Of a DNA stretch of 64,000 nt, positions 52,537 through 64,000 are shown piece by piece. How positions within the stretch are numbered: position 1 is the first letter of the stretch; every line of letters begins with the position of its first letter. The translations under genes were made by a program, and so were the position numbers. The notes below the pieces were generated by a model. It saw only the letters and a program-made list of their open reading frames with translations, searched no databases and was not told where the DNA came from. This DNA is from Candidatus Dormiibacterota bacterium (lineage in GTDB: Bacteria > Chloroflexota > Dormibacteria > Aeolococcales > Aeolococcaceae): contig OY970355.1 in the NCBI GenBank assembly GCA_963718525.1, positions 2,048,001 to 2,112,000 of the forward strand, written 5' to 3'.

Positions 52537-53628
52537 TCAGGCTGAGCGTCCGAGTGCCTCGACAACCGCGTCCGCCACCTCAGCGGTCCCCACTGCGCTT
52601 GGGTCGTCCCGTTCGGCCTTCATATCGTAGGTCACGCTGCGTCCTTCGGCGATGACCTGCGCCAGTGCCCGCTCGAGCCGGTCGGCCGCGTCCTTCTCGC
52701 CGATGTAGCGGAGCATGAGGACGCCGCTGAACATCATGGCCATCGGATTCGCCTTGTTCTGTCCCGCATATTTCGGCGCGCTGCCGTGGGTGGCCTCGAA
52801 CATGGCCACACCGTCGCCGAAGTTTGCCCCGGCCGCGATACCGAGGCCGCCGATCATCCCTGCCCCGAGATCGGTGAGGATATCGCCATAGAGGTTGGGC
52901 ATGACCATGACGTCGTATATCTCGGGCTTTTGCACGAGCTGCATCGCCATGTTGTCGACGATGCGATCGTTGAACTCGATCTGCGGGAACTCGGTGCTCA
53001 CCTCCCTGGCAGTGCGCAGCCACAGCCCGTCGGTGTGCTTCATGATATTCGCTTTGTGAACGGCGGTGACCATATGACGCCCGTTGTCGATGGCCCACTG
53101 GAACGCGAAGCGGAACACGCGCTGTGTCCCGAAGATCGAGATCGGCTTGATGCTGATGCCCGCATCGGAGCGGATCTTCCTTCCGTTGAGACGTTCGATG
53201 TCCGCGATGAGCTCGAGCGTCTCGGGCTCACCGACGGCGAACTCGATACCCGCATAGAGGTCCTCGGTGTTCTCCCGCACCACGACAAGGTCGATGTCCT
53301 CGAAGCGACTGCGTACCCCGGGGTACGACTTCAGCGGGCGTACCAGGGCGAAGAGATCGAGCTCGCGGCGAAGCGCCACGTTGACGGACCGGATGCCCGA
53401 CCCGATCGGCGTTGTGAGCGGGCCCTTGAGCGCAACCTTGTTCCGCCGGATGGAGTCGACCACCGCCGGGGGCAGCGGGTCACCGGTTGCTTCCATGACG
53501 GCGAGGCCGGCGTTGTGGACCTCCCACGAGATCTCGACACCGGTCGCATCGATGGCCCGGCATGCCGCAGCGCTTAATTCGGGGCCGACCCCGTCGCCCG
53601 GAATGATGGTGATTGTGTGTCGCGCCAT
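52537..53628 (-). CDS. Isocitrate/isopropylmalate dehydrogenase family (NAD-IDH-like)
   Basis: PGDGVGPE, KGPLTTP...RSVNVALRR, RENTEDLY, HKANIMK, PNLYGDI and EATHGSAP. Confidence 0.88.
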   Translation of the reverse strand: MARHTITIIPGDGVGPELSAAACRAIDATGVEISWEVHNAGLAVMEATGDPLPPAVVDSIRRNKVALKGPLTTPIGSGIRSVNVALRRELDLFALVRPLKSYPGVRSRFEDIDLVVVRENTEDLYAGIEFAVGEPETLELIADIERLNGRKIRSDAGISIKPISIFGTQRVFRFAFQWAIDNGRHMVTAVHKANIMKHTDGLWLRTAREVSTEFPQIEFNDRIVDNMAMQLVQKPEIYDVMVMPNLYGDILTDLGAGMIGGLGIAAGANFGDGVAMFEATHGSAPKYAGQNKANPMAMMFSGVLMLRYIGEKDAADRLERALAQVIAEGRSVTYDMKAERDDPSAVGTAEVADAVVEALGRSA

Positions 53629-53759
53629 GCTGTTGCGGTCCTCCAGATTGAGTGGCAGGGAATCGAACGACGGCGCGGATGCGAGCTTCTGTTCCGATCA
53701 GCGCCTGTCAACGGGCATTGGATGTCTCTCGTGCGGCTGTGCCGGGACTACCCACCACT

Positions 53760-54653
53760 TTATCGACCGGCGGCAAGCCTGGCGTCGAGCACTTCGTAGG
53801 CAGGGTAGTTCAGCGAGGCCTCCATGTCCTCTCGGGTGGACATGCGATCGAGCAGCGAGGCCGTGGTGCCAGTATCGCGGATTGCGATGTACGCGTCCAT
53901 CTGGGCACGTGCGGCAAGTCGCATCGACGTGGTCGGCCAGATCACCATCTTGTAGCCCATCTCCTCCACCTGGGCAGCCGTGAAGGCGGGAGTCTGCCCG
54001 AACTCCGTGAGGTTCGCAAGGAGCGGTGCAGCAACACGTGTAGCGAACTCACGGAACATGGACTCACTCGTCAGCGCCTCGGGAAAGACCGCATCGGCGC
54101 CTGCGTCGAGGTAGCGAAGACTGCGTGCGATGGCTCCGTCGAGCCCCTCGCTCTCGAGAGCATCCGTACGGGCGACGATGACCATGTCCCGCCGTGCCAT
54201 CACGGCCGCCCTGATCCGGATCACCATGTCCTCCACCGTGGCCATGCGCTTGTCGCGCAGATGTCCGCACTTCTTGGGCAGGATCTGGTCTTCGATGTGC
54301 ACGGCAGCAGCGCCGGCATCCTCGAAGGCGCGAACCATGTAGGCGACGTTGAGCGCTTCGCCGTGCCCGGTATCACCGTCCACGAGCACCGGCAGATTGG
54401 TGGCGTGGACAACCTGCCGGATGAAGAAGCACACGTCGTCAATGGTGATCACCCCGACATCGGGCAGCCCCATCGACGCCGACATGGCGGCGCCGGACAG
54501 GTAGAGGGCTTCGAAGCCGGCATTCCTCGCCTGAATAGCGGCAAGGCCGTTGTGCGCACCCGGCATGAGCACGGCGCCGGGCCGCTCCAGCAACTGCCTC
54601 AAGCGGAGACCCAGCGAGCCCGTGGGCGTGACGAGACCGATGGAGTCGACCAT
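53760..54653 (-). CDS. prpB: Methylisocitrate lyase (ICL/PEP mutase family)
   Basis: YLSGAA, GLPD, VDGDTG, IEDQILPKKCGHL, ARTDA and ANLTEFG. Confidence 0.82.
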   Translation of the reverse strand: MVDSIGLVTPTGSLGLRLRQLLERPGAVLMPGAHNGLAAIQARNAGFEALYLSGAAMSASMGLPDVGVITIDDVCFFIRQVVHATNLPVLVDGDTGHGEALNVAYMVRAFEDAGAAAVHIEDQILPKKCGHLRDKRMATVEDMVIRIRAAVMARRDMVIVARTDALESEGLDGAIARSLRYLDAGADAVFPEALTSESMFREFATRVAAPLLANLTEFGQTPAFTAAQVEEMGYKMVIWPTTSMRLAARAQMDAYIAIRDTGTTASLLDRMSTREDMEASLNYPAYEVLDARLAAGR

Positions 54654-54658
54654 GGGTC

Positions 54659-54671
54659 ATATATCATATAT
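54659..54671. promoter_or_regulatory. Conserved AT-rich operator-like motif, copy 1
   Basis: ATATATCATATAT in the divergent prpB / tartrate-DH intergenic region; near-identical to 60737-60749. Confidence 0.55.
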
Positions 54672-54761
54672 AAATCGAGTCCTGAGCTTCGTCCCCGACG
54701 AGCCGGGGTCATTGCGGCCGCCGAGATCCCTCGGCGCATCAGCACAGGGGTGATCTGAGGC

Positions 54762-55802
54762 ATGCAGCGGATTGCAGTCATCGCCGGAGACGGGATCGGC
54801 AGAGAGGTCGTGCCTGCCGGGATACGCGTGCTCTCGAGCGTGTGTGACCTCGATTTTCACGAGCTCGACTGGGGCTCTGATCTCTACCTGCGGACCGGCG
54901 CGATGATGCCTGACGACGGCCTCGAGGTACTCGATGACTTCGACGCCATCTACCTCGGTGCCGTGGGCGTCCCTCAAGTCCCTGACCACGTGACCTTGTG
55001 GGGGCTGCTGCTGCCGATTCGCAAAGCATTCGAGCTGTACGTCAACGTCCGGCCCGTCAACCTGCTGCGCGGAGTGCGGGGGCCACTGGCCGATCGCGGG
55101 CCCGAGGACATCGACATGCTCTTCATCCGTGAGAACACGGAGGGTGAGTACTCGGGCGCCGGTGGACGCGTCCATACCGGCACATCGCTGGAAGTCGCCG
55201 TGGAGGTGCCGGTATTTACGCGAGCCGCCATCGAGCGGACCGTGCGGTACGCATTCGACCGTGCGCGGGAGCGTTCCGGTTCGCTCACCAGTGTGACCAA
55301 GTCCAACGCGAGCCGGTACACCTATGTGCTCTGGGACCAGGTCGTCGAGGAGGTGCACCAGGAATACGCGGACGTCGTGCTGGATCGTGTCCTCGTGGAC
55401 GCGATGGCGGCGCGTATGGTGCTCCGACCCGACGCGGTGGACGTCGTGGTGGGCTCGAACCTGTTCGCCGACATCCTCACCGACCTCGGTGCTGCGCTGC
55501 AGGGCGGGCTCGGGCTCGCCGCGAGCGGGAACATCGATCCGAGCGGCCGCCATCCGTCGCTGTTCGAGCCCGTTCACGGGTCGGCACCGGACATCGCCGG
55601 ACAGGGAGTTGCCAATCCGATGGGCGCCGTCCTCAGCGGGGCGATGATGCTCCGTCACCTCGGCGAGGTCAACGCCGCGCAGCGTGTCGAAGCTGCCGTC
55701 GCCCTGGTCGTCGAACGCGGGGAGACGCTCACGCCGGATCTCGGCGGCACCGCGGGCACCTCCGAGGTCACCGAGGCGCTCATCGCCGCCCTCGCCACCT
55801 GA
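54762..55802 (+). CDS. Tartrate / D-malate dehydrogenase-like beta-decarboxylating dehydrogenase
   Basis: GDGIGREV, VPDHVTLWGLLLPIR, RENTEGEYS, TSVTKSNA and EPVHGSAPDI. Confidence 0.85.
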   Translation: MQRIAVIAGDGIGREVVPAGIRVLSSVCDLDFHELDWGSDLYLRTGAMMPDDGLEVLDDFDAIYLGAVGVPQVPDHVTLWGLLLPIRKAFELYVNVRPVNLLRGVRGPLADRGPEDIDMLFIRENTEGEYSGAGGRVHTGTSLEVAVEVPVFTRAAIERTVRYAFDRARERSGSLTSVTKSNASRYTYVLWDQVVEEVHQEYADVVLDRVLVDAMAARMVLRPDAVDVVVGSNLFADILTDLGAALQGGLGLAASGNIDPSGRHPSLFEPVHGSAPDIAGQGVANPMGAVLSGAMMLRHLGEVNAAQRVEAAVALVVERGETLTPDLGGTAGTSEVTEALIAALAT

Positions 55803-55836: not shown

Positions 55837-57189
55837 CTAGGCCACCGCGACCCGGGTGCAGATCGCGCGGATCTCGTCGTCGGTCAAGGAGCGGCGGCGC
55901 ACGGTGGCGTCATCAACGATTGCCTGCCAGATGAGGGGAATCTTCTCCCGGTCGACGGTGATCCCAAGCTGATCCAGCTTGTCCTGGACCGTCCACATGC
56001 CGCTGGTTCTGTTGACGATCCACTCCTTCTCTGCGCCGACGAGTGACGGCTCGTAGGCCCAGTGGAGGAGGGGCTCAACCTTGAGCTCCTGGACGACGAT
56101 CTCGGTCCCTCCCCAGTTGTGCGCCCCGCGACCGGTGACGGCATGTGCGGCAGCGAGCTGCACACCGCTGATGTCCTCGACAAGGCGCGCGAGCGAATTC
56201 ATCTGATCGAGGTGAATGCCGGTGTGCACCCCATACAGCACCTCGAGGGCCGTCGCCATCTGGGCAAGGTCCACCTGACCGGCGGTCGCCGAGATTCCGT
56301 TGACCGAGACCTCGGTGACCTCCGCGCCGGCGTGTACGGCGGCGAGCGCGCACGCCACTCCCAGGCCGAACGCATTTCGGATGTACGTACCGATTCGACA
56401 TCCCGGTGCATACCGGCGAACCATGGACACGATGTGATTCCAGCCCTCGGGAGCGATCCCCGCGGCACCGTCCGAGAGCCAGATCTCGTCGACGCCTGCA
56501 GCATGCATCGCGGTGCAGTAGCGCTCGAGATGGTTGTCGTCCACAAGGGTGAGGAGGTTGATGCCGGTGCTCGCGCGCAGGCCGTGGAACCGGATGCGTG
56601 CGATCAACTGCACCCCGCGCTCGATCTCCTGGTCGAGTGTGGTGGGCACGCCCAGCGTGCGCCAGTCACCCCCCGCCCATGAGGTGCGATACGCCTCGGA
56701 CCAGTAGATCGGCGTTGCCTCGGGCAGCGCAGGCATCCAGAACTCGGCGAGGGTCACGCCCACCTCGGCGGCGATGTCGACCATAGCTTCGGTCTGGGTC
56801 GCGCCCATCTTGACGCCGAGATCCGGCCGTATCGATTTGAGATGGGTCACCTCATCACGCAGCGCCGCCGCCGACATGCCCCAGCCATGCGCGGACACCT
56901 CGATCTCGGGAACGCCCGCTTCGAGAAGCGCCTCGCCGAGGCGCCGGCGTTGCGCGCGGTCCACGGTGACGCCTGGCGTCTGCTCGATGACCCGCAACGT
57001 GATGTCGCGCAACGTCGTCGAGTGGGGATAGTGGTCCGGGAATGGTGCTCCGAGGACCGACGGATCCCGGTTGTATGGGCTCACCGCCCAGCGACCGGGT
57101 TCGAAGCTCCCCGGGCGCCGCCTGCGCGCGAATGCCTCCTGGATGTGTCGAACTTCGTCAGGCGTCAGATGCGGCGACGGTGCGGCCAC
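55837..57189 (-). CDS. LeuA/homocitrate-synthase-like DRE-TIM protein with a degenerate active site
   Basis: DITLRVIEQTPGV (vs DTTLRDGEQ), GTYIRNAFGLG (vs HxHNDxG), EVSVNGI, LEVLYG and YEPSLVG. Confidence 0.75.
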   Translation of the reverse strand: MAAPSPHLTPDEVRHIQEAFARRRRPGSFEPGRWAVSPYNRDPSVLGAPFPDHYPHSTTLRDITLRVIEQTPGVTVDRAQRRRLGEALLEAGVPEIEVSAHGWGMSAAALRDEVTHLKSIRPDLGVKMGATQTEAMVDIAAEVGVTLAEFWMPALPEATPIYWSEAYRTSWAGGDWRTLGVPTTLDQEIERGVQLIARIRFHGLRASTGINLLTLVDDNHLERYCTAMHAAGVDEIWLSDGAAGIAPEGWNHIVSMVRRYAPGCRIGTYIRNAFGLGVACALAAVHAGAEVTEVSVNGISATAGQVDLAQMATALEVLYGVHTGIHLDQMNSLARLVEDISGVQLAAAHAVTGRGAHNWGGTEIVVQELKVEPLLHWAYEPSLVGAEKEWIVNRTSGMWTVQDKLDQLGITVDREKIPLIWQAIVDDATVRRRSLTDDEIRAICTRVAVA

Positions 57190-57230
57190 AGGCTCCTCCT
57201 GTCGTGGTGCGCGGGTCCGACGTACGATCC

Positions 57231-58322
57231 TCAGCCGGCATCGAGTGCAGCCAGGACGGCTTTCGTCAGGCCTTCGGTGGTCGCGGTCCCGCCTAGGTCA
57301 GGCGTGCGTGTGTCGCCCGACGCGAGCGTTCGCGCAATTGCCGAGTCGACATCGTCTGCCACGGCTATCAGGTCGGGCTCTCCGTGCACTCTGCTGAGCC
57401 AGCGCAGCAGCAGCGAACCGGAAAGGATCTCGGCGATGGGATTGGCGATGCCCATGCCGGCGATGTCGGGTGCGGATCCATGCACGGCCTGCGCCATGGC
57501 GTGATCATCACCAATGTTCAACCCCGGGGCGAGACCCAGGCCGCCGACGAGTCCGGCCGCCTCGTCGGAGAGGATGTCGCCGAACATGTTCGTGGTCACC
57601 ACCACGTCGGCGACCTCGGGGCGGAGGATGAGGCGCATCGCGAAGGCATCGACCAGAAAATCATCGAACGCGATGTCTGGATTCTCGGCCGCGACATCAC
57701 GGCAGCACTCGAGGAAGAGGCCGTCGCCGCGGCGGAGCACGTTGGCTTTGTGCACGCACGTGACCTTTCGAAGTCCGTCACGCTCGCGAGCAAGTGCGAA
57801 CGCCTGGCGCGCGACCCGCATGCTCGCGCGCCGCGTGACCAGACGCACCGAGATCACCGTGTCCAGGTCGGGGCGGAGCTCGCCGTTGCCGTCGAGCATG
57901 TTGCGATCGGCGTAGAAGCCCTCGGTGTTCTCGCGGACGATCACCACATTCATATCGGGGTGCACGCATTCGACGCCGGGCCAGCCGCGCGCCGGGCGTA
58001 CGTTGGCGTACAGCTCGAAGTTCTTGCGCAGGTACCCGCTGGGGTTCACATAGCGCGCGTCACCCATGGGGTAATCACGATGAGAGACCGGCCCGAGAAT
58101 CCACCCCGGGATATCGGGAAGGGCTTCCCGCGTGCGGATCGGCAGCGTGCTCCCCTCGCTGTCAACCGAAGCCACCCCGGCCGGCAGCGGCACCCACGCG
58201 ATGTCGACGGCGTGCCGCTTCGCGGCGTGGTCGAGGATGCGAGTCGTCGACCGGACGATCTCCGGGCCGATGTCATCGCCCTCCATCACGGCGATCCTCA
58301 CCGGCGAGGTCTCGCCATTCAT
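57231..58322 (-). CDS. Isocitrate/isopropylmalate dehydrogenase family protein (third paralog)
   Basis: GDDIGPEI, NPSGYLRK, RENTEGFYADRN, HKANVL, NMFGDILSD and QAVHGSAPDI. Confidence 0.88.
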   Translation of the reverse strand: MNGETSPVRIAVMEGDDIGPEIVRSTTRILDHAAKRHAVDIAWVPLPAGVASVDSEGSTLPIRTREALPDIPGWILGPVSHRDYPMGDARYVNPSGYLRKNFELYANVRPARGWPGVECVHPDMNVVIVRENTEGFYADRNMLDGNGELRPDLDTVISVRLVTRRASMRVARQAFALARERDGLRKVTCVHKANVLRRGDGLFLECCRDVAAENPDIAFDDFLVDAFAMRLILRPEVADVVVTTNMFGDILSDEAAGLVGGLGLAPGLNIGDDHAMAQAVHGSAPDIAGMGIANPIAEILSGSLLLRWLSRVHGEPDLIAVADDVDSAIARTLASGDTRTPDLGGTATTEGLTKAVLAALDAG

Positions 58323-59263
58323 CCGCGTGGTGCGGCCGCCGGCACGACCCGGCGAGAGTTGGTCACTGCCATCGTGCACACCTCGCTTTCGGTGAAGCCC
58401 GCCTCGAGAAAACGATCTGCCATCAGCGCCATCCCATCTTCAACCGGCGGATTGTGCGGCTGGCCGAGATCGCTGGAGAACAGCGAGTGTTCAGTCCCGG
58501 CCGCGCGCACGTTCGCAAACAGCGCCTCCCAGCTGATGCGCCCGCCGTGCGGCGTTCCGAAGCATCGCTCCAGAAGACACCCGCGGTCGCCGAGCGCGCG
58601 CTGCTGCTCGGGCGCAAGTTGCTGCGAAGGGAAATCAGGGTGGGTGATGACGATTCGCTCCACGCCGGCCTCCTGTGCCGCGATGACCACGGGCAGGATT
58701 TCGTCACCGCCGAGATGCCCCGTGCAGAGCACGAGGTCGTGCTCCGCGACGAGCTCGAGGACGGTGTGCACCTCGGGGAGAACCTTTCCACCGGCATCAA
58801 TCATCCTGATCGGGGGCGGGCTGATGCCCTTCGCCTGCAGGTGATTCTTGAGCGCGAGCCAGCCCGGGGGGGTTCCCTGGCCGGCCGCTTCAGCGGCGTG
58901 CGCCTCGTTGATGGAATCGAAGGTCGGGAGCCACACGAACTTCCCGCCGCTGCGCGCGCAGATCTCCACTGCAACGGGGTTCACACCGCCCACAGGCCAG
59001 TTCAACGTGACCGCTCCGATCACCTCGACACCGGACGTGGCCTGCACGAGTGCGGCACGCTCCGCGGTCATCGTGTAGTGGGATTTGAGGACAAAACCGC
59101 CCAGCCCGAGTTGACTGAAACGCGCCGCCAGGCTGACGTCGTCGATGCGACGCTGCAGCACATCGGGAAGCACGTGAACGTGGAGGTCGTAGGCGCCCTG
59201 AAGGAGTTCTCGTGCTCGGTTTGAGGGGACCGGATGTGACTGCGCCTCCGCCTCACCCGCCAT
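58319..59263 (-). CDS. DUF6282-like amidohydrolase/PHP-fold metalloprotein
   Basis: DLHVHVLPD, VLKSH, VWLPT, TGH, ITHP and SSDLGQ metal-ligand pattern. Confidence 0.75.
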   Translation of the reverse strand: MAGEAEAQSHPVPSNRARELLQGAYDLHVHVLPDVLQRRIDDVSLAARFSQLGLGGFVLKSHYTMTAERAALVQATSGVEVIGAVTLNWPVGGVNPVAVEICARSGGKFVWLPTFDSINEAHAAEAAGQGTPPGWLALKNHLQAKGISPPPIRMIDAGGKVLPEVHTVLELVAEHDLVLCTGHLGGDEILPVVIAAQEAGVERIVITHPDFPSQQLAPEQQRALGDRGCLLERCFGTPHGGRISWEALFANVRAAGTEHSLFSSDLGQPHNPPVEDGMALMADRFLEAGFTESEVCTMAVTNSRRVVPAAAPRG

Positions 59264-60737
59264 CGGCGGTGGCCTTCGATGCAGCACTGGCCTCGCCAAC
59301 GGCACCGGCTTGTGGCACGGTCAGCGCCATGAGCGCGCGTACATCGGGCGCATCCCAGGCACCCTCGAGCGCCGTCAGCAATTCGCCGGTCTGTTCGTCA
59401 CCAAGGCTCGGACGGACATTGCCACGGAACTTGCGCCGATGGTCCGCCGGCAGCATGGGATTGAGCCTGGTGCCGCGCTGGGCGGGCACGTCTTCCTCAA
59501 AGACCCGGCCGTCCACCGTCGTCAGGCGTACGCGAGCGGGGAAGGTGTCCGGAAGCATCGATGGATCCGCGTGGCAGAACACACGCGCAGCGAAATCGCG
59601 GATCTCCTGGTTGGCGAGCGTGGTCTCGTTGTAATCGTCGACCTCCACCGAGCCGAGCACCACAAGCATGGCCACGGAGTACTGGAGGCTGAACTTCATG
59701 TGATAGAGCGAGCGAGGGTTCAGCTTTGCGTCTCGAGGTTCGCAGACGAGCGGGATGCAGATCGGCGGCACGTAGCAGTCGATTCGGTCGACATCGCTGG
59801 TGGACAGGCCCTCGCGCTCGAGGATGGCCACGGTGCCGTCCATCGAGGCGTGATTCCACACGCCGTTTGGCCAGGGCTTGTAGGTCGTGTCCGGCAGGAT
59901 CCACCGCACTCCGAGACCGTCCGTGATCTGATCGAACTGGAAGGTCTCCTCGTCACCGTGCAGGAGTGCATTGAAGAACCCGAACTTCCCCTCGATCACC
60001 TCATGCGGGCCGGTGAACCCCTCGGCCGCGAGTTGCGCACACGTGATGCCGCCCTGCACCCCCCAGCCGGGATGGAGCTGCTTGACCCAGCTTCCGTCAA
60101 TCAAGGTCTGCATGAGGCCGGAGGACCTGCTGCCGGCCATCCCGAGCGCATTGGTCGTGGCCTCCTCGTCGAGGTTCATGAGCTTCGCGGCAATCGCAGC
60201 CGCGGCGAACGGGCCGGCGACACCGGTGCCATGGAGTCCACGATGGTGAAACTGGTGTGGGGGAGCCCCTGTGTTGATGCGCAGCGCGAGTTCCGCACCC
60301 GTCGCCATCGCCACGAGGCATTGGGCTCCGGTGGAGCCGGCAGCCTCAGCTGCAGCTAGAGCTGCCGGCACGGCGACGGAGCTGATGTGGACGGCTGCGA
60401 CGCCGTGCATGTCGTCGTAGTCGGCGCCGTGGCCCACAGCACCATTCACCCAACCCGTGAGCGGCGCGGGGAATCGACTCCCGAACACCATGCTGGTGGA
60501 TTCCGGCGTGCCACCTGACTTAATTGCCACTTTGTGGATGATGCCGGCCGATGCCGAGCGTGACCCGGCAATGCACACGCCGACCTGGTCGACGAGTCGC
60601 CAGCGGATATCGTCGGCCACGTCCGCGGGAAGGTCGGTGGCATCGACACCGACCGACCAGCGCGCGAGCTGTTCGGAGATGGTGCTCGTCGGTCGCGGAA
60701 CCCCGTTCGAGGGAGAGGCGTCTTGGCTCACCGGCAA
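59253..60737 (-). CDS. MmgE/PrpD family protein (start uncertain)
   Basis: NGAVGHGADYDDMH, KQLHPG, EGKFG, KPWP and KFSLQY. Confidence 0.88.
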   Translation of the reverse strand: MPVSQDASPSNGVPRPTSTISEQLARWSVGVDATDLPADVADDIRWRLVDQVGVCIAGSRSASAGIIHKVAIKSGGTPESTSMVFGSRFPAPLTGWVNGAVGHGADYDDMHGVAAVHISSVAVPAALAAAEAAGSTGAQCLVAMATGAELALRINTGAPPHQFHHRGLHGTGVAGPFAAAAIAAKLMNLDEEATTNALGMAGSRSSGLMQTLIDGSWVKQLHPGWGVQGGITCAQLAAEGFTGPHEVIEGKFGFFNALLHGDEETFQFDQITDGLGVRWILPDTTYKPWPNGVWNHASMDGTVAILEREGLSTSDVDRIDCYVPPICIPLVCEPRDAKLNPRSLYHMKFSLQYSVAMLVVLGSVEVDDYNETTLANQEIRDFAARVFCHADPSMLPDTFPARVRLTTVDGRVFEEDVPAQRGTRLNPMLPADHRRKFRGNVRPSLGDEQTGELLTALEGAWDAPDVRALMALTVPQAGAVGEASAASKATADGG

Positions 60738-60749
60738 TATATCCTATAT
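60737..60749. promoter_or_regulatory. Conserved AT-rich operator-like motif, copy 2
   Basis: ATATATCCTATAT between the divergent MmgE/PrpD genes. Confidence 0.55.
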
Positions 60750-60872
60750 TAAACGCTGCGGCGATCGCCCCGGGAAGCACCCCGGTCGTACCATGTCCAC
60801 GGCGGCGCGGAGGGAGTTTGCGTGACCCAGGAGTTTATGAGCGCGAGACGACAACGAGTGGAGGACGGCCCT

Positions 60873-62273
60873 GTGACTGATGCCACCGAGCACGCCGCTG
60901 TATTCATCACCGGGACGCGTCTTGCCGACGTGCCACCCACGGTGCTCGCGGCTGCGAAGCATTCCATGCTCGACGGATTCGGTCTCGCCGTCGCAGGATC
61001 GCGGACGGAGGCTGCGCGGATTGCGCGCGACGAGGTGGGCTCGTATCGGTGCGCAGCCGTTGATGCTGCAGCCCTGGGAACGACGCTGCGCGTTCCACCC
61101 CGATTTGCCGCGTTCCTCAATGGTCTGGCGGTTCATGCGGATGACTACGACGACACACAGCTCGCCACCTTGCCCGATCGCGTGTATGGCCTCCTGACGC
61201 ATCCGACGGCTCCCGTGTTGCCGGCGGCGCTTGCGCTCGGGGAGGCGGGTGGACGGACCGGCGCCGACGTGCTCCTCGCCTACGTGGTCGGAGTCGAGGT
61301 CGAAACCAAGGTCTCCGAAGCGATCAACCCGCGTCACTACGACGAGGGCTTCCATTCGACCGGGACCGTCGGCACGATCGGGTCGGGCGCCGCAGCCGCG
61401 TCCATCCTGGGGTTGACGCCCGAACTCACGCGGACCGCGCTGAGCATCGCGGCGTCACAGGCGGCGGGGCTGCGCGAGAACTTCGGCACCATGACCAAGC
61501 CGTTCCACGCGGGCCGTGCGGCGGAGAGCGGTCTGCTCGCCGCGTCGATGGCACAGCGTGGGTTCACTGCGGCGAACAACATCCTCGAGTCGCGACGAGG
61601 CTTCTTCAGCGCCGCCGGCGGAGGGTACGAGCCGTCAGCGTTCACTCCCGGATCGCCCTGGACGTTCGATGCTCCGGGTGTGTCGATCAAGCCACATCCG
61701 TCGGGCTCCCTGACGCATCCGGCGATGTTCGCGCTCATGGAGCTCCTCACCGAGCACGACATTCAAACCGCCGACATCGAGCAGGTGTCCGTCGGGACGA
61801 ACCGGCACATGCCCAACGCGCTGATCCACCATGACCCGCACGATCACCTGGCGGCGAAGTTCAGCATGGAGTTCTGCATGGCCATCCTGTGCATCGAGCG
61901 GCGTGCGGGCCTGGCCGAGTTCACCGATGCGGTCGTGATGCGGCCCGATGTCAAGGACATGATGCGGCGCGTCAGATTCGAGGTCGACCCCGAGGCCGAA
62001 GGCGCCGGTTACAACAACATGACCAGCATCGTGCGGATTCGCCTGCGCAATGGCACGACGCACGAGGGCAGAGCAGCCTTCGGGAAGGGAAGCCCGCAGA
62101 ACCCCATGTCCGAAGCCGAGGTCCGTGCGAAGTTCATGGAGTGCATCGATGCGGGTGGGATCGGCGCCGAGGCGGGATCGCGTGCCGCCGACCTGATCCT
62201 CGACATCGAGCATCAGCGTGACGTCCGACAGGTGATCAGCCTGCTTACCAGCGCTCCGGGCTCAACGCCCTAG
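60873..62273 (+). CDS. MmgE/PrpD family protein
   Basis: GGAGG RBS; HADDYDDT, THPTAP, GFHSTG, NFGTMTKPFHAG, KPHPSG and AKFSME. Confidence 0.9.
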   Translation: MTDATEHAAVFITGTRLADVPPTVLAAAKHSMLDGFGLAVAGSRTEAARIARDEVGSYRCAAVDAAALGTTLRVPPRFAAFLNGLAVHADDYDDTQLATLPDRVYGLLTHPTAPVLPAALALGEAGGRTGADVLLAYVVGVEVETKVSEAINPRHYDEGFHSTGTVGTIGSGAAAASILGLTPELTRTALSIAASQAAGLRENFGTMTKPFHAGRAAESGLLAASMAQRGFTAANNILESRRGFFSAAGGGYEPSAFTPGSPWTFDAPGVSIKPHPSGSLTHPAMFALMELLTEHDIQTADIEQVSVGTNRHMPNALIHHDPHDHLAAKFSMEFCMAILCIERRAGLAEFTDAVVMRPDVKDMMRRVRFEVDPEAEGAGYNNMTSIVRIRLRNGTTHEGRAAFGKGSPQNPMSEAEVRAKFMECIDAGGIGAEAGSRAADLILDIEHQRDVRQVISLLTSAPGSTP

Positions 62274-63018
62274 TCACGTCCGCCGGCGCGGCACCGCTCT
62301 TGATCAGGTTCGTGACGGCCTCCTCGGCGCCCTCGGCAGCCTCGCAGTGGGCGATCACAGCGTCCACGCTTTCGAACGGGACGATGCACACGCCGCTGTC
62401 GTCGGCGGCGATGAGGTCCCCGGGACGCACCTGAGCGCCGCAGATCGCGACCGTGCCGTTGATCTCGACGGCTTCGACTCGATGGCGGCCGGTGATCGGC
62501 GTCCGGCCGCGGCTCCAGACGTGCGGACCCGTGGTGCGTATCGACGCGATGTCGCGCACCCCACCGTCGACGATGCAGCCCGCGATGCCGAGGCGGACAG
62601 CCCAGAGCGCAGAGAGGTTGCCCATCACCGACGTTCCAGCGGCTCCGCCGGCGTCGAACACCGCCACGTCGCCGGCCTGACCGACACCGTAGAGATCACG
62701 GTCGGCGAGCAGCGGGCGGCTGTCGCGCGCGTAGTGCGCGCCGGGAGTGCCGCCGCGGCCCGCGTATCGGATCGTCACGGCAGGTCCGCAGATGCGCTGA
62801 CCCGGTGCCAGCGGAACCAGGACATGGCCAGGAATCGCTGATCCGACGCCGAGCGCATCCAACGCGTCCGACACGGTCGACGTCAGGTCGGTGATCCGGC
62901 TGAATCTGGCGATAACCTCGGGCGCTGGTCGTGCAATGCGCACGGCGCGAATGCGACTCTCGTCGATCAGCCCGAGCAGCCGGTCGCGAACTGCATCCAA
63001 CTCTTCAGGAGTTGCCAT
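62245..63018 (-). CDS. RraA family / HMG-aldolase-like protein
   Basis: STVSDALD, CGPAVTI, MGNLSA, VDGGVRD and PGDLIAADDSGV. Confidence 0.85.
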   Translation of the reverse strand: MATPEELDAVRDRLLGLIDESRIRAVRIARPAPEVIARFSRITDLTSTVSDALDALGVGSAIPGHVLVPLAPGQRICGPAVTIRYAGRGGTPGAHYARDSRPLLADRDLYGVGQAGDVAVFDAGGAAGTSVMGNLSALWAVRLGIAGCIVDGGVRDIASIRTTGPHVWSRGRTPITGRHRVEAVEINGTVAICGAQVRPGDLIAADDSGVCIVPFESVDAVIAHCEAAEGAEEAVTNLIKSGAAPADVTRALSPERW

Positions 63019-64000
63019 TCAGACCCCGATGTGTTGACGGCGCTGCGGCTGTGCACGCCGATGTCAGCAGTTCGAGGGCGGTGATGTCCGGCGCCGTGGG
63101 CATCCCCATGACCTCATCGAGAAGACGCTGCACCGAGTTGTCATCATATTCGCCGGAAACGTTGTCGCGGAATTTCGCGATCACGTCGTCGCGTGTCAGC
63201 GGTGCGGAGCGGCTTCCGCGTGGTGCCTCGACGGTGATCGCGCGCTCACGTCCGTCCGCCAGCAGCAGGCTGATGCCCGCGGCCAGCGGCGGTGCCGCCG
63301 GGTCGGTACGCACATGCACCTTGCTCACCCACGTCTCGAACGACCCCGCGTCGTCGACCAGACGCTGCTGCGTCGCGACGCTGAAGGTATCGACGTTCAC
63401 CCGTCCATCCGTGAGTGCGGCGAGCGCGCAGTAACGAAGACTGAACTTGGCATTCTCGGCGCCGAGCGAGGTCTTGTCAGCGATCTGCGCCGCCAGCGGA
63501 TGCACTTCAACGCTCATGCGCGCGACGTCGGCAGCCCCGAGGAGATCCAATGACCCGTGCAGCGAGAGTGTTGCGTCGATGGTGGAGTGGGTCAGGAAGC
63601 ACGACGGATATGGCTTGATGGCGACGAGTTCAGCGGCTCCGGCGCATTCGTCGCCCCAGCGCACCGTCGTCGGTGCATCGACTCCGAGCCAGAGAGCCAG
63701 CACTCCGTGATCGCCGAAGGCCGCACCGTGCGGCGCGTTCAATCCGGCCGCCACGAACGTTGCGGCGCGGACGCCGATCTCTGACGCTCGCGCCGCCTGG
63801 AGGGGCTTGCCGTCACTGCCGAACGCTGCCCCAAGGCCGGCTGCGAGTAACGCCGCAACTTCCACGGCGTCGGCGGTCATCTCAGCGTCATGGGTCAGCA
63901 GCCAGCCGCAGGCGGCACCCGACCCGAGGCTGCCGAGGATTGCAGTGGAATGTGCTCCGGCGGTGTTGAGGGCCGGACCGCAGGCCGATGCGAAGTCGAT
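63005..64000 (-). CDS. MmgE/PrpD family protein (5' end outside the window)
   Basis: Frame open to the edge (GAHSTAILG); KPLQAA, KPYPSCFLTH, AKFSLRY and PRGS..PL...KF. Confidence 0.85.
   Translation of the reverse strand: MDFASACGPALNTAGAHSTAILGSLGSGAACGWLLTHDAEMTADAVEVAALLAAGLGAAFGSDGKPLQAARASEIGVRAATFVAAGLNAPHGAAFGDHGVLALWLGVDAPTTVRWGDECAGAAELVAIKPYPSCFLTHSTIDATLSLHGSLDLLGAADVARMSVEVHPLAAQIADKTSLGAENAKFSLRYCALAALTDGRVNVDTFSVATQQRLVDDAGSFETWVSKVHVRTDPAAPPLAAGISLLLADGRERAITVEAPRGSRSAPLTRDDVIAKFRDNVSGEYDDNSVQRLLDEVMGMPTAPDITALELLTSACTAAAPSTHRGLNGNS

Follow-up and report, generated by a model that had tools for sequence, protein, structure and literature searches.

A homocitrate/isopropylmalate synthase-fold protein family without the DRE-TIM metal site, conserved in a putatively catabolic operon of a Dormibacterota bacterium

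One account (PMC11532901) presents the DRE-TIM superfamily as centred on its metal site and the active-site Arg (Arg89 of MAMS) as invariant and essential across it. In BjMAMS (PDB 6e1j) the essential metal is held by Asp90, His288, and His290, the 2-oxo acid is held by Arg89 and Thr257, and Gln93 and His388 bridge to coenzyme A (CoA), His388 being the general base on which Tyr399, itself held by Glu227, is stacked (PMC11532901, PMC8468904). The present analysis concerns a 450-aa relative of these enzymes encoded in a 64,000-nucleotide stretch, hereafter the window, of the genome of Candidatus Dormiibacterota bacterium (assembly GCA_963718525.1, contig OY970355.1, positions 2,048,001 to 2,112,000 of the forward strand). 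Its gene, at 55837..57189 on the minus strand, is the last of a four-gene operon. The DRE-TIM Arg that follows beta-1 is present in this protein as Arg66, and the divalent-metal site (Asp/Glu beside that Arg and His-x-His on beta-7) is absent, with Val67, Tyr269, and Arg271 in its place.

The protein was mapped onto BjMAMS 6e1j by pairwise, profile hidden Markov model (HMM), and profile-profile alignments. Arg66 and Gln70, which correspond to MAMS Arg89 and Gln93, are kept, and Asp90, Glu227, Thr257, His288, and His290 are replaced by Val67, Asn211, Gly241, Tyr269, and Arg271, respectively; four alignment methods concur on the replacement of the metal triad. A preliminary description of this DNA, made from its letters, had pointed to four altered motifs, and all four were found. 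DITLRVIEQ (residues 62–70; 56980..57006, minus strand, as for all parts of this gene given below) keeps Arg66 and Gln70 and has Val67 for the metal Asp and Ile68 for a Gly. In YIRNA (residues 269–273; 56371..56385) the metal His-x-His has become Tyr269-x-Arg271, with Asn272 kept. SATAGQ (residues 300–305; 56275..56292) replaces GERAGN, and its Gln305 recurs as a conserved residue in the relatives described below as clades A, B, and I. The HxSGIH loop is replaced by HNWGGTEIV (residues 357–365; 56095..56121), of which HNWGGTE occupies residues 357–363. Here the earlier reading, HESGIH turned into NWGGTE, stands in part: no alignment puts a His at the catalytic-base position, and the register is ambiguous, the counterpart of MAMS His388 being Thr362 (phmmer), Glu363 (MAFFT, the register of the earlier reading), or Val365 (profile HMM and hhalign), never His. 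The following segment (residues 368–376; 56062..56088) carries Glu368 and His376, both gained as the metal Asp was lost, and His376 aligns beside the MAMS Tyr399 position.

The known Claisen machinery is thus gone save for the Arg and the Gln, the rest of the mapped residues being replaced. The general-base His and the equivalents of Thr257 and Glu227 of Claisen-condensing enzymes are all absent, and their substitutes Gly241 and Asn211 are each present in 31/31 sequences of clade A. We infer from these replacements that the canonical metal-dependent acetyl-CoA Claisen condensation is no longer possible. The roles of the lost residues are those given in the two accounts cited (PMC11532901, PMC8468904).

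The fold itself is retained. Pfam HMGL-like (PF00682) matches with E 2.8e-25 and 89.7 bits against a cut-off of 29, which places a DRE-TIM HMGL-like TIM-barrel domain in the protein. HCS_D2, the model of the post-barrel helical subdomain, reaches 18.5 bits against a cut-off of 27, and a structural alignment to homocitrate synthase (HCS) 6ktq spans about 410 columns and includes this subdomain. Every NCBIfam synthase model remains far under its cut-off (best 145.3 bits vs 517 for NF002085; nifV 127 vs 463). The nearest sequences in the PDB are those of HCS 6ktq, with a profile match of E 2e-80, and of MAMS/isopropylmalate synthase (IPMS) 6e1j. An AlphaFold2 (AF2) model built on a 40-sequence alignment has eight barrel strands, a mean predicted local distance difference test score (pLDDT) of 94.6, and a predicted TM-score (pTM) of 0.92. 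Foldseek searches with it returned SaHCS 6ktq first (E 8e-24, TMt 0.83) and MAMS 6e1j second (TMt 0.80), followed in rank order by IPMS, HCS, and citramalate synthase, and then by the aldolase DmpG and HMG-CoA lyase. The DRE-TIM metallolyase kinship seen by eye in the preliminary description is borne out by Pfam, the model, and Foldseek, and the protein is, by its predicted structure, an intact homocitrate/isopropylmalate synthase fold that belongs to an uncharacterised subfamily in the HCS/IPMS branch of DRE-TIM barrels.

With the solved HCS, IPMS, and MAMS structures (6ktq, 6e1j, 3rmj) the protein shares the TIM barrel and, going by the structural alignment, probably the helical post-barrel subdomain, and Arg66, Thr64, Gln70, Asp240, Asn272, and Asn297 occupy matching columns; Glu69 is also retained. 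Unlike them, it has Val/Tyr/Arg for the metal Asp/His/His, Gly and Asn for the equivalents of Thr257 and Glu227, SATAGQ for GERAGN, and no catalytic His. It also differs by two additions. One is a 55-residue N-terminal cap (…PG-x-EPG-x-W-x-VSPYNR…) without counterpart in solved structures, and the other is a Trp/Tyr/Arg-rich insertion of 22 residues after strand beta-4 (residues 156–177; 56659..56724), not present in solved HCS/IPMS, in which P156, Y162, W163, Y167, R168, W171, W176, and R177 are invariant in clade A.

The gene is intact. The open reading frame (ORF; P0001) is uninterrupted, as had been described before, though its strand had not been stated: it is open on the minus strand only. 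It begins with a GTG at 57189, preceded by an AGGAGGA ribosome-binding site read from the sequence at 57194..57200 (minus), 4 nt before the start, and the preceding IsoDH gene ends in a TGA stop 41 nt upstream of that start. Codon-position G+C of 0.69/0.49/0.82 is as in the real genes around it, in a window of 65% G+C. Intact LeuA-type paralogues with DTTLRDGEQ, HCHND, and GERAGN are encoded elsewhere in the genome, so the 450-aa gene is an extra copy.

Nei-Gojobori estimates on codon alignments give a ratio of nonsynonymous (dN) to synonymous (dS) change, omega, well below 1. Against the relative at locus L095 (97% aa identity) dS is 0.256, dN 0.014, and omega 0.055; against that at L001 (93%) dS is 0.90, dN 0.04, and omega 0.042–0.047; and against that at L097 (74%), where dS is saturated, omega is about 0.15. 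In the L095/L001 comparisons the operon neighbours have omega values of 0.083/0.061 (PrpD-like), 0.118/0.102 (DUF6282), and 0.136/0.129 (IsoDH-like), so that the 450-aa gene, with the lowest values, is the most constrained of the four. On the checks proposed with the preliminary description, dN/dS is below 1 (0.055; 0.042–0.047), and close orthologs do not keep the D and HxH, 31/31 having V/T67, Y269, and R/K271. A decaying or recently inactivated synthase copy, or a loss of motifs produced by misalignment, would account for the missing canonical motifs and for nothing else, and is very improbable. It is opposed by the intact 450-codon frame with its strong ribosome-binding site, by omega of 0.04–0.06, by the same replacements in 31/31 relatives down to 44% identity, by the agreement of four alignment methods on the triad, and by the high-confidence AF2 model. 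The idea of a decaying or frameshifted gene was rejected on the frame, the ribosome-binding site, the low omega, and the fixation of the replacements in relatives, in line with the earlier statement that this is not decay.

Relatives were collected by a word-indexed search (55 matches) and an exhaustive search (2315 matches at E ≤ 1e-3, 50 of them at E ≤ 1e-30). Of 204 collected proteins, 158 (380–520 aa) were aligned and grouped by motif state and tree position. Clade A (n = 31; 44–98% identity to the query) has V in 29 and T in 2 at position 67, Y in 31 at position 269, R in 30 and K in 1 at position 271, and a motif of the S-A-T-A-G-Q type. Clade B (n = 30; 30–47%) has T in 24, V in 2, and other residues in 4 at position 67, H in 28 and H in 30 at 269 and 271, and has lost the Glu-Arg of GERAGN with Gln305 kept. 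Group I (n = 4; about 30%) has V in 3 and L in 1 at position 67, HxHND kept with H in all 4 at both 269 and 271, and GE[RK]AGQ. The canonical group (n = 90; 22–31%) has D/E in 81 at position 67, H in 88 and in 89 at 269 and 271, R/K in 85 at position 302, and N in 65 at position 305; given how uniform the triad columns are here, its replacement in clade A is no accident of chance. Three further odd sequences (I2) were treated separately. Arg66 does not vary within clades A, B, or I. Among 201 genomes of the phylum that were searched, no close match was found outside the window's own genome, and four other genomes have matches to proteins 27–31% identical and of canonical type. For the taxonomic range of clade A the evidence is a few source names (Dormibacteraeota) together with locus titles.

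A maximum-likelihood tree of 68 selected sequences (14 A, 28 B, 6 I/I2, and 20 canonical), rooted on the canonical ones, shows clade A as monophyletic (Shimodaira-Hasegawa approximate likelihood ratio test, SH-aLRT, 100) and nested within clade B (A+B 99), with group I outside both. Read on this tree, the losses began with the metal Asp and the Asn of GERAGN; Glu-Arg and the equivalent of Thr257 followed, and the last change, a single event, turned the His pair into a Tyr plus a cationic residue. The preliminary description had proposed a concerted loss; since the intermediate states, group I and clade B, are ordered on the tree, the change was stepwise. Losses were accompanied by gains. Asn211, Gln305, Asp307, Glu368, and His376 are fixed throughout I, B, and A, and none of them occurs in the 90 canonical sequences, and Glu97, His101, Trp103, His220, Trp237, and Ser239 are invariants of clade A only. 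Glu97, present in 31/31 of clade A and Q or V in clade B, matches the conserved Glu at the end of beta-2 that is the E of D-R-E. N211, D240, G241, E368, and H376 are each found in 31/31 clade-A sequences. Between the ≥90% consensus of A and the ≥60% consensus of B 14 positions differ, two of which are the former metal His positions. Also among these differences is an exchange at residues 220 and 269 (56528–56530 and 56383–56385), Tyr/His in clade B and His/Tyr in clade A, which looks like a swap within a contacting pair that may lie near the former metal site.

In clade A 90/450 columns are invariant, and they are unevenly placed on the barrel, whose faces were defined from the DSSP string of the AF2 model. 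Invariant positions make up 19/48 of the C-terminal (catalytic) face vs 5/48 of the N-terminal face (Fisher p 0.0018), and 19/48 of the catalytic face vs 71/402 of all other positions (p 0.0009). The catalytic barrel face is the most conserved part of the protein.

The reading favoured here, with a probability of roughly 0.5, is that the 450-aa protein is a neofunctionalised, probably metal-independent, carboxylate-binding enzyme under strong selection. It is preferred to a non-catalytic subunit because no surface is more conserved than the old active-site face, because polar residues were gained in the active site in step with the losses, and because it was specifically a cationic residue (Arg in 30, Lys in 1) that replaced the second metal His as the Asp paired with it became uncharged, which would conserve the net charge of the site. 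A carboxylate ligand, such as a 2-oxo- or 2-hydroxy-di- or tricarboxylate, would still be bound in the old pocket. Arg271, a Lys in one member, would put its guanidinium where the lost cation was and supply the same positive charge, and Val67 would remove a negative charge left unpaired. Asn211, Gln305, Asp307, Glu368, and His376 would then catalyse a different and probably metal-independent step, to which the later clade-A gains Glu97, His101, His220, and Trp237 would add. Candidate reactions are hydration, isomerisation, and C–C cleavage, and the step would belong to the breakdown of an imported polycarboxylic acid.

A more specific and distinctly more tentative version of this proposal is that a side-chain cation (Arg271 or Lys) replaced the divalent metal, that His376, Glu368, and Tyr269 form a new acid/base set, and that the path is preserved in extant clades. 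It would run from the canonical D/H/H through the V/H/H of group I with GERAGQ and the T/H/H of clade B to the V/Y/R of clade A. The LigI lactonase is a metal-independent member of the amidohydrolase superfamily. It offers a likeness in concept, a metal-dependent fold working without metal after replacement of ligands, and serves as a lead only.

Several points weigh against an enzyme of this kind. Where Arg271 lies with respect to the former metal position is deduced from sequence alignment, as is the lining of the pocket by His376, Glu368, and the insertion 156–177. The near-total loss of known catalytic residues is also typical of a pseudoenzyme, and an invariant pocket would be just as expected of a non-catalytic ligand sensor. 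Support for the branch on which the tree is rooted is weak (79), the sequences behind the conservation statistics are related and not independent, and the operons seen with their flanks count as about two independent observations. No pathway step is obviously missing, as the surrounding island holds candidates for C–C cleavage (HpcH/HpaI-like, PrpB, and RraA-like).

A true pseudoenzyme is a serious, if less likely, alternative to the enzyme proposed above. As an enzyme homologue without catalytic motifs the 450-aa protein has one of the two operational marks of a pseudoenzyme, and it may be a non-catalytic subunit that regulates, stabilises, or scaffolds the IsoDH-like, DUF6282, or PrpD-like protein, or a sensor of keto- or hydroxy-acids. 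All known catalytic residues, as listed in PMC11532901, are replaced save Arg66 and Gln70, the gene is always the last in a tight operon of real enzymes, and very low omega also suits a protein constrained by several interfaces. A functional pairing is hinted at by DUF6282 genes that adjoin distant canonical relatives with the W-x-VSPYN cap in three genomes, at L017 (where the genes overlap), L020, and L080. On the other side, the conserved residues cluster on the catalytic face of the barrel and not on its outer surface, and five new polar residues were fixed around the pocket as the Asp was lost, which has the look of rebuilding more than of abandonment. Any binding partner is so far putative; complex prediction with DUF6282 (residues 28–328) gave a score of 0.00 and a mark of 0.32 with no verdict and is uninformative on binding.

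It is less probable again that the protein is still a metalloenzyme with aldol/Claisen-type chemistry. In clade A the metal site would have moved to Glu97, His101, and His220 plus Asp62 or Asp240, and in clade B the two His that remain would hold the metal together with the substrate. The first three residues are fixed in clade A (Glu97 31/31, His101 30/31, His220 29/31) and not in clade B, positions 220 and 269 have the swapped-pair look near the old site, and HxH is kept in 28–30/30 of clade B. In the DSSP assignment of the model, however, residues 97 and 101 follow beta-2 and residue 220 opens helix alpha-5 after beta-5, and since these are non-neighbouring barrel elements, a joint Glu97/His101/His220 site is not evident. 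Arg/Lys271 would moreover place a positive charge in the old site, and the general-base His is missing in every alignment.

The operon reads on the minus strand from an MmgE/PrpD-family protein (59253..60737) through a DUF6282 protein (58319..59305) and an Iso_dh-family dehydrogenase (57231..58379), closest to homoisocitrate/isopropylmalate dehydrogenases and under every NCBIfam cut-off, to the 450-aa HMGL-like protein. Its gene order is conserved in the window, in the 93–97% relatives at L001, L095, and L096, and in the 74% relative at L097, which extends the preliminary description's mention of an operon gene to a four-gene operon conserved down to the 74% lineage. L098 (73%) fits the same order, its contig ending inside DUF6282, and the contig of L099 (59%) starts at the HMGL-like gene itself. 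Contigs of relatives from two sequencing runs, one labelled RNA-Seq and probably DNA, span the operon and are uninformative on expression.

Around the operon, the window encodes a tartrate dehydrogenase and the methylisocitrate lyase PrpB, each above its cut-off; a further Iso_dh paralogue and a D-2-hydroxyacid dehydrogenase; a type-I citrate synthase and an RraA-like aldolase; and two additional members of the PrpD family. To the right of the window (L114:1–14431) a fourth PrpD paralogue, a GntR/FCD regulator, and a CoA-transferase III are found, and further along an HpcH/HpaI-like lyase with a DUF6986/malate-synthase-like part, hydantoinase B and A, an FAA-hydrolase, and a LIV-type ABC transporter. 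The island at L097 includes CoA-transferase III, GntR, PrpD, PrpD, the operon, and a binding protein of the LIV-type ABC kind, and clade-B genes adjoin TctC or ABC uptake systems, PrpD paralogues, CoA-transferase III, and acyl-CoA dehydrogenases. The uptake systems, GntR, CoA-transferase, and lyases point to catabolism of an imported polycarboxylic acid and not to amino-acid biosynthesis. As the compound handled, the make-up of the operon (a beta-decarboxylating dehydrogenase with a dehydratase-type PrpD and a hydrolase-type DUF6282) would suit a malate or citrate that bears a substituent, or the lactone or amide of such an acid.

Some other features of these loci were recorded. Paralogues are unusually piled up within 12 kb of the window (52537–55802 and 60822–64000), with three Iso_dh-family genes, the tartrate dehydrogenase gene among them, three MmgE/PrpD genes, and a fourth MmgE/PrpD gene that runs off the window. 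A 203-aa ORF without family match (60744–61355, minus) overlaps the start of the plus-strand PrpD gene 60822–62273 and is probably no gene; a sigma-70-like match (60723–60750, plus) lies before the same PrpD gene. A clade-B homologue of 47% identity at L100:2218–4281 (plus) is contained in a 687-aa frame with about 288 residues before the HMGL-like domain, which may reflect a fusion or simply an ORF that runs too long because the DNA is rich in G+C. In a Chloroflexi metagenome-assembled genome with two clade-B paralogues, a UGSC-family ORF (L002:4411–6114, plus) has one in-frame TGA at GVGA-U-GAC and probably encodes a selenocysteine-containing protein.

The DUF6282 family is large, with 3254 matches among the candidates scored, those in Actinomycetes at about 60% identity. 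An alignment of 26 sequences shows Asp40, His42, His44, Lys74, His197, His222, and Asp279 to be invariant, a pattern that we take to be the binuclear-metal signature of the amidohydrolase superfamily. The AF2 model of the protein (pLDDT 90.6) matches members of this superfamily at TM 0.5–0.6, including renal dipeptidase, lactonases, LigI (4d8l/4di8), a phosphotriesterase-homology protein, and decarboxylases. By its model DUF6282 has an amidohydrolase-superfamily fold, and it is probably a binuclear-metal hydrolase of lactonase, amidase, or dipeptidase type.

Two known arrangements resemble the locus in part. The first is the canonical W-x-VSPYN subfamily of HMGL-like proteins (about 400 aa; P0046, P0047, and P0051, loci L005–L080), which agrees in domain layout and in the motif of the N-terminal cap (hhalign probability 100% over 395 columns) and is encoded in catabolic clusters alongside transporters and GntR/FCD regulators, in three cases, as described above, next to DUF6282. 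It differs in keeping R-D/E, HxHND, and GERAGN (81–89/90), at 22–31% identity. No characterised member of this subfamily was found either, and the gene context of 13 canonical relatives is too varied to point to one pathway. The second is the 2-oxo-acid chain-elongation module known from leucine, lysine-AAA, coenzyme B, and glucosinolate pathways, as outlined in PMC8468904. As in these modules, a synthase-fold gene stands beside an Iso_dh-family dehydrogenase, and a dehydratase-type PrpD-family protein sits here in the place of the isomerase. Unlike in these modules, the 'synthase' is devoid of the catalytic apparatus, the aconitase-family isomerase is absent and PrpD-like and amidohydrolase-fold proteins are found instead, and the context is catabolic, not biosynthetic.

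No account of the family, of DUF6282, or of a ligand-less DRE-TIM protein was found in the literature, which was covered partly by titles and abstracts; surveys of DRE-TIM subgroups might mention such clusters. Public annotations name the relatives isopropylmalate, homocitrate, or citramalate synthases. The annotation '2-isopropylmalate/homocitrate synthase' is wrong for this family, enzyme or not, and would mislead metabolic reconstructions of Dormibacterota and of other soil metagenome-assembled genomes. DUF6282, a large unannotated family, now has a predicted fold and a probable binuclear metal-hydrolase site. The clade described here has lost the central metal site of its superfamily, yet purifying selection on it is stronger than on the bona fide enzymes encoded next to it. 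If catalytic, it would represent a metalloenzyme scaffold rebuilt around an arginine, with living intermediates for each step, and, should arginine indeed stand for the metal, a metal-to-arginine transition that is experimentally traceable. If non-catalytic, it would be a clean bacterial case of a pseudoenzyme fixed inside a metabolic operon.

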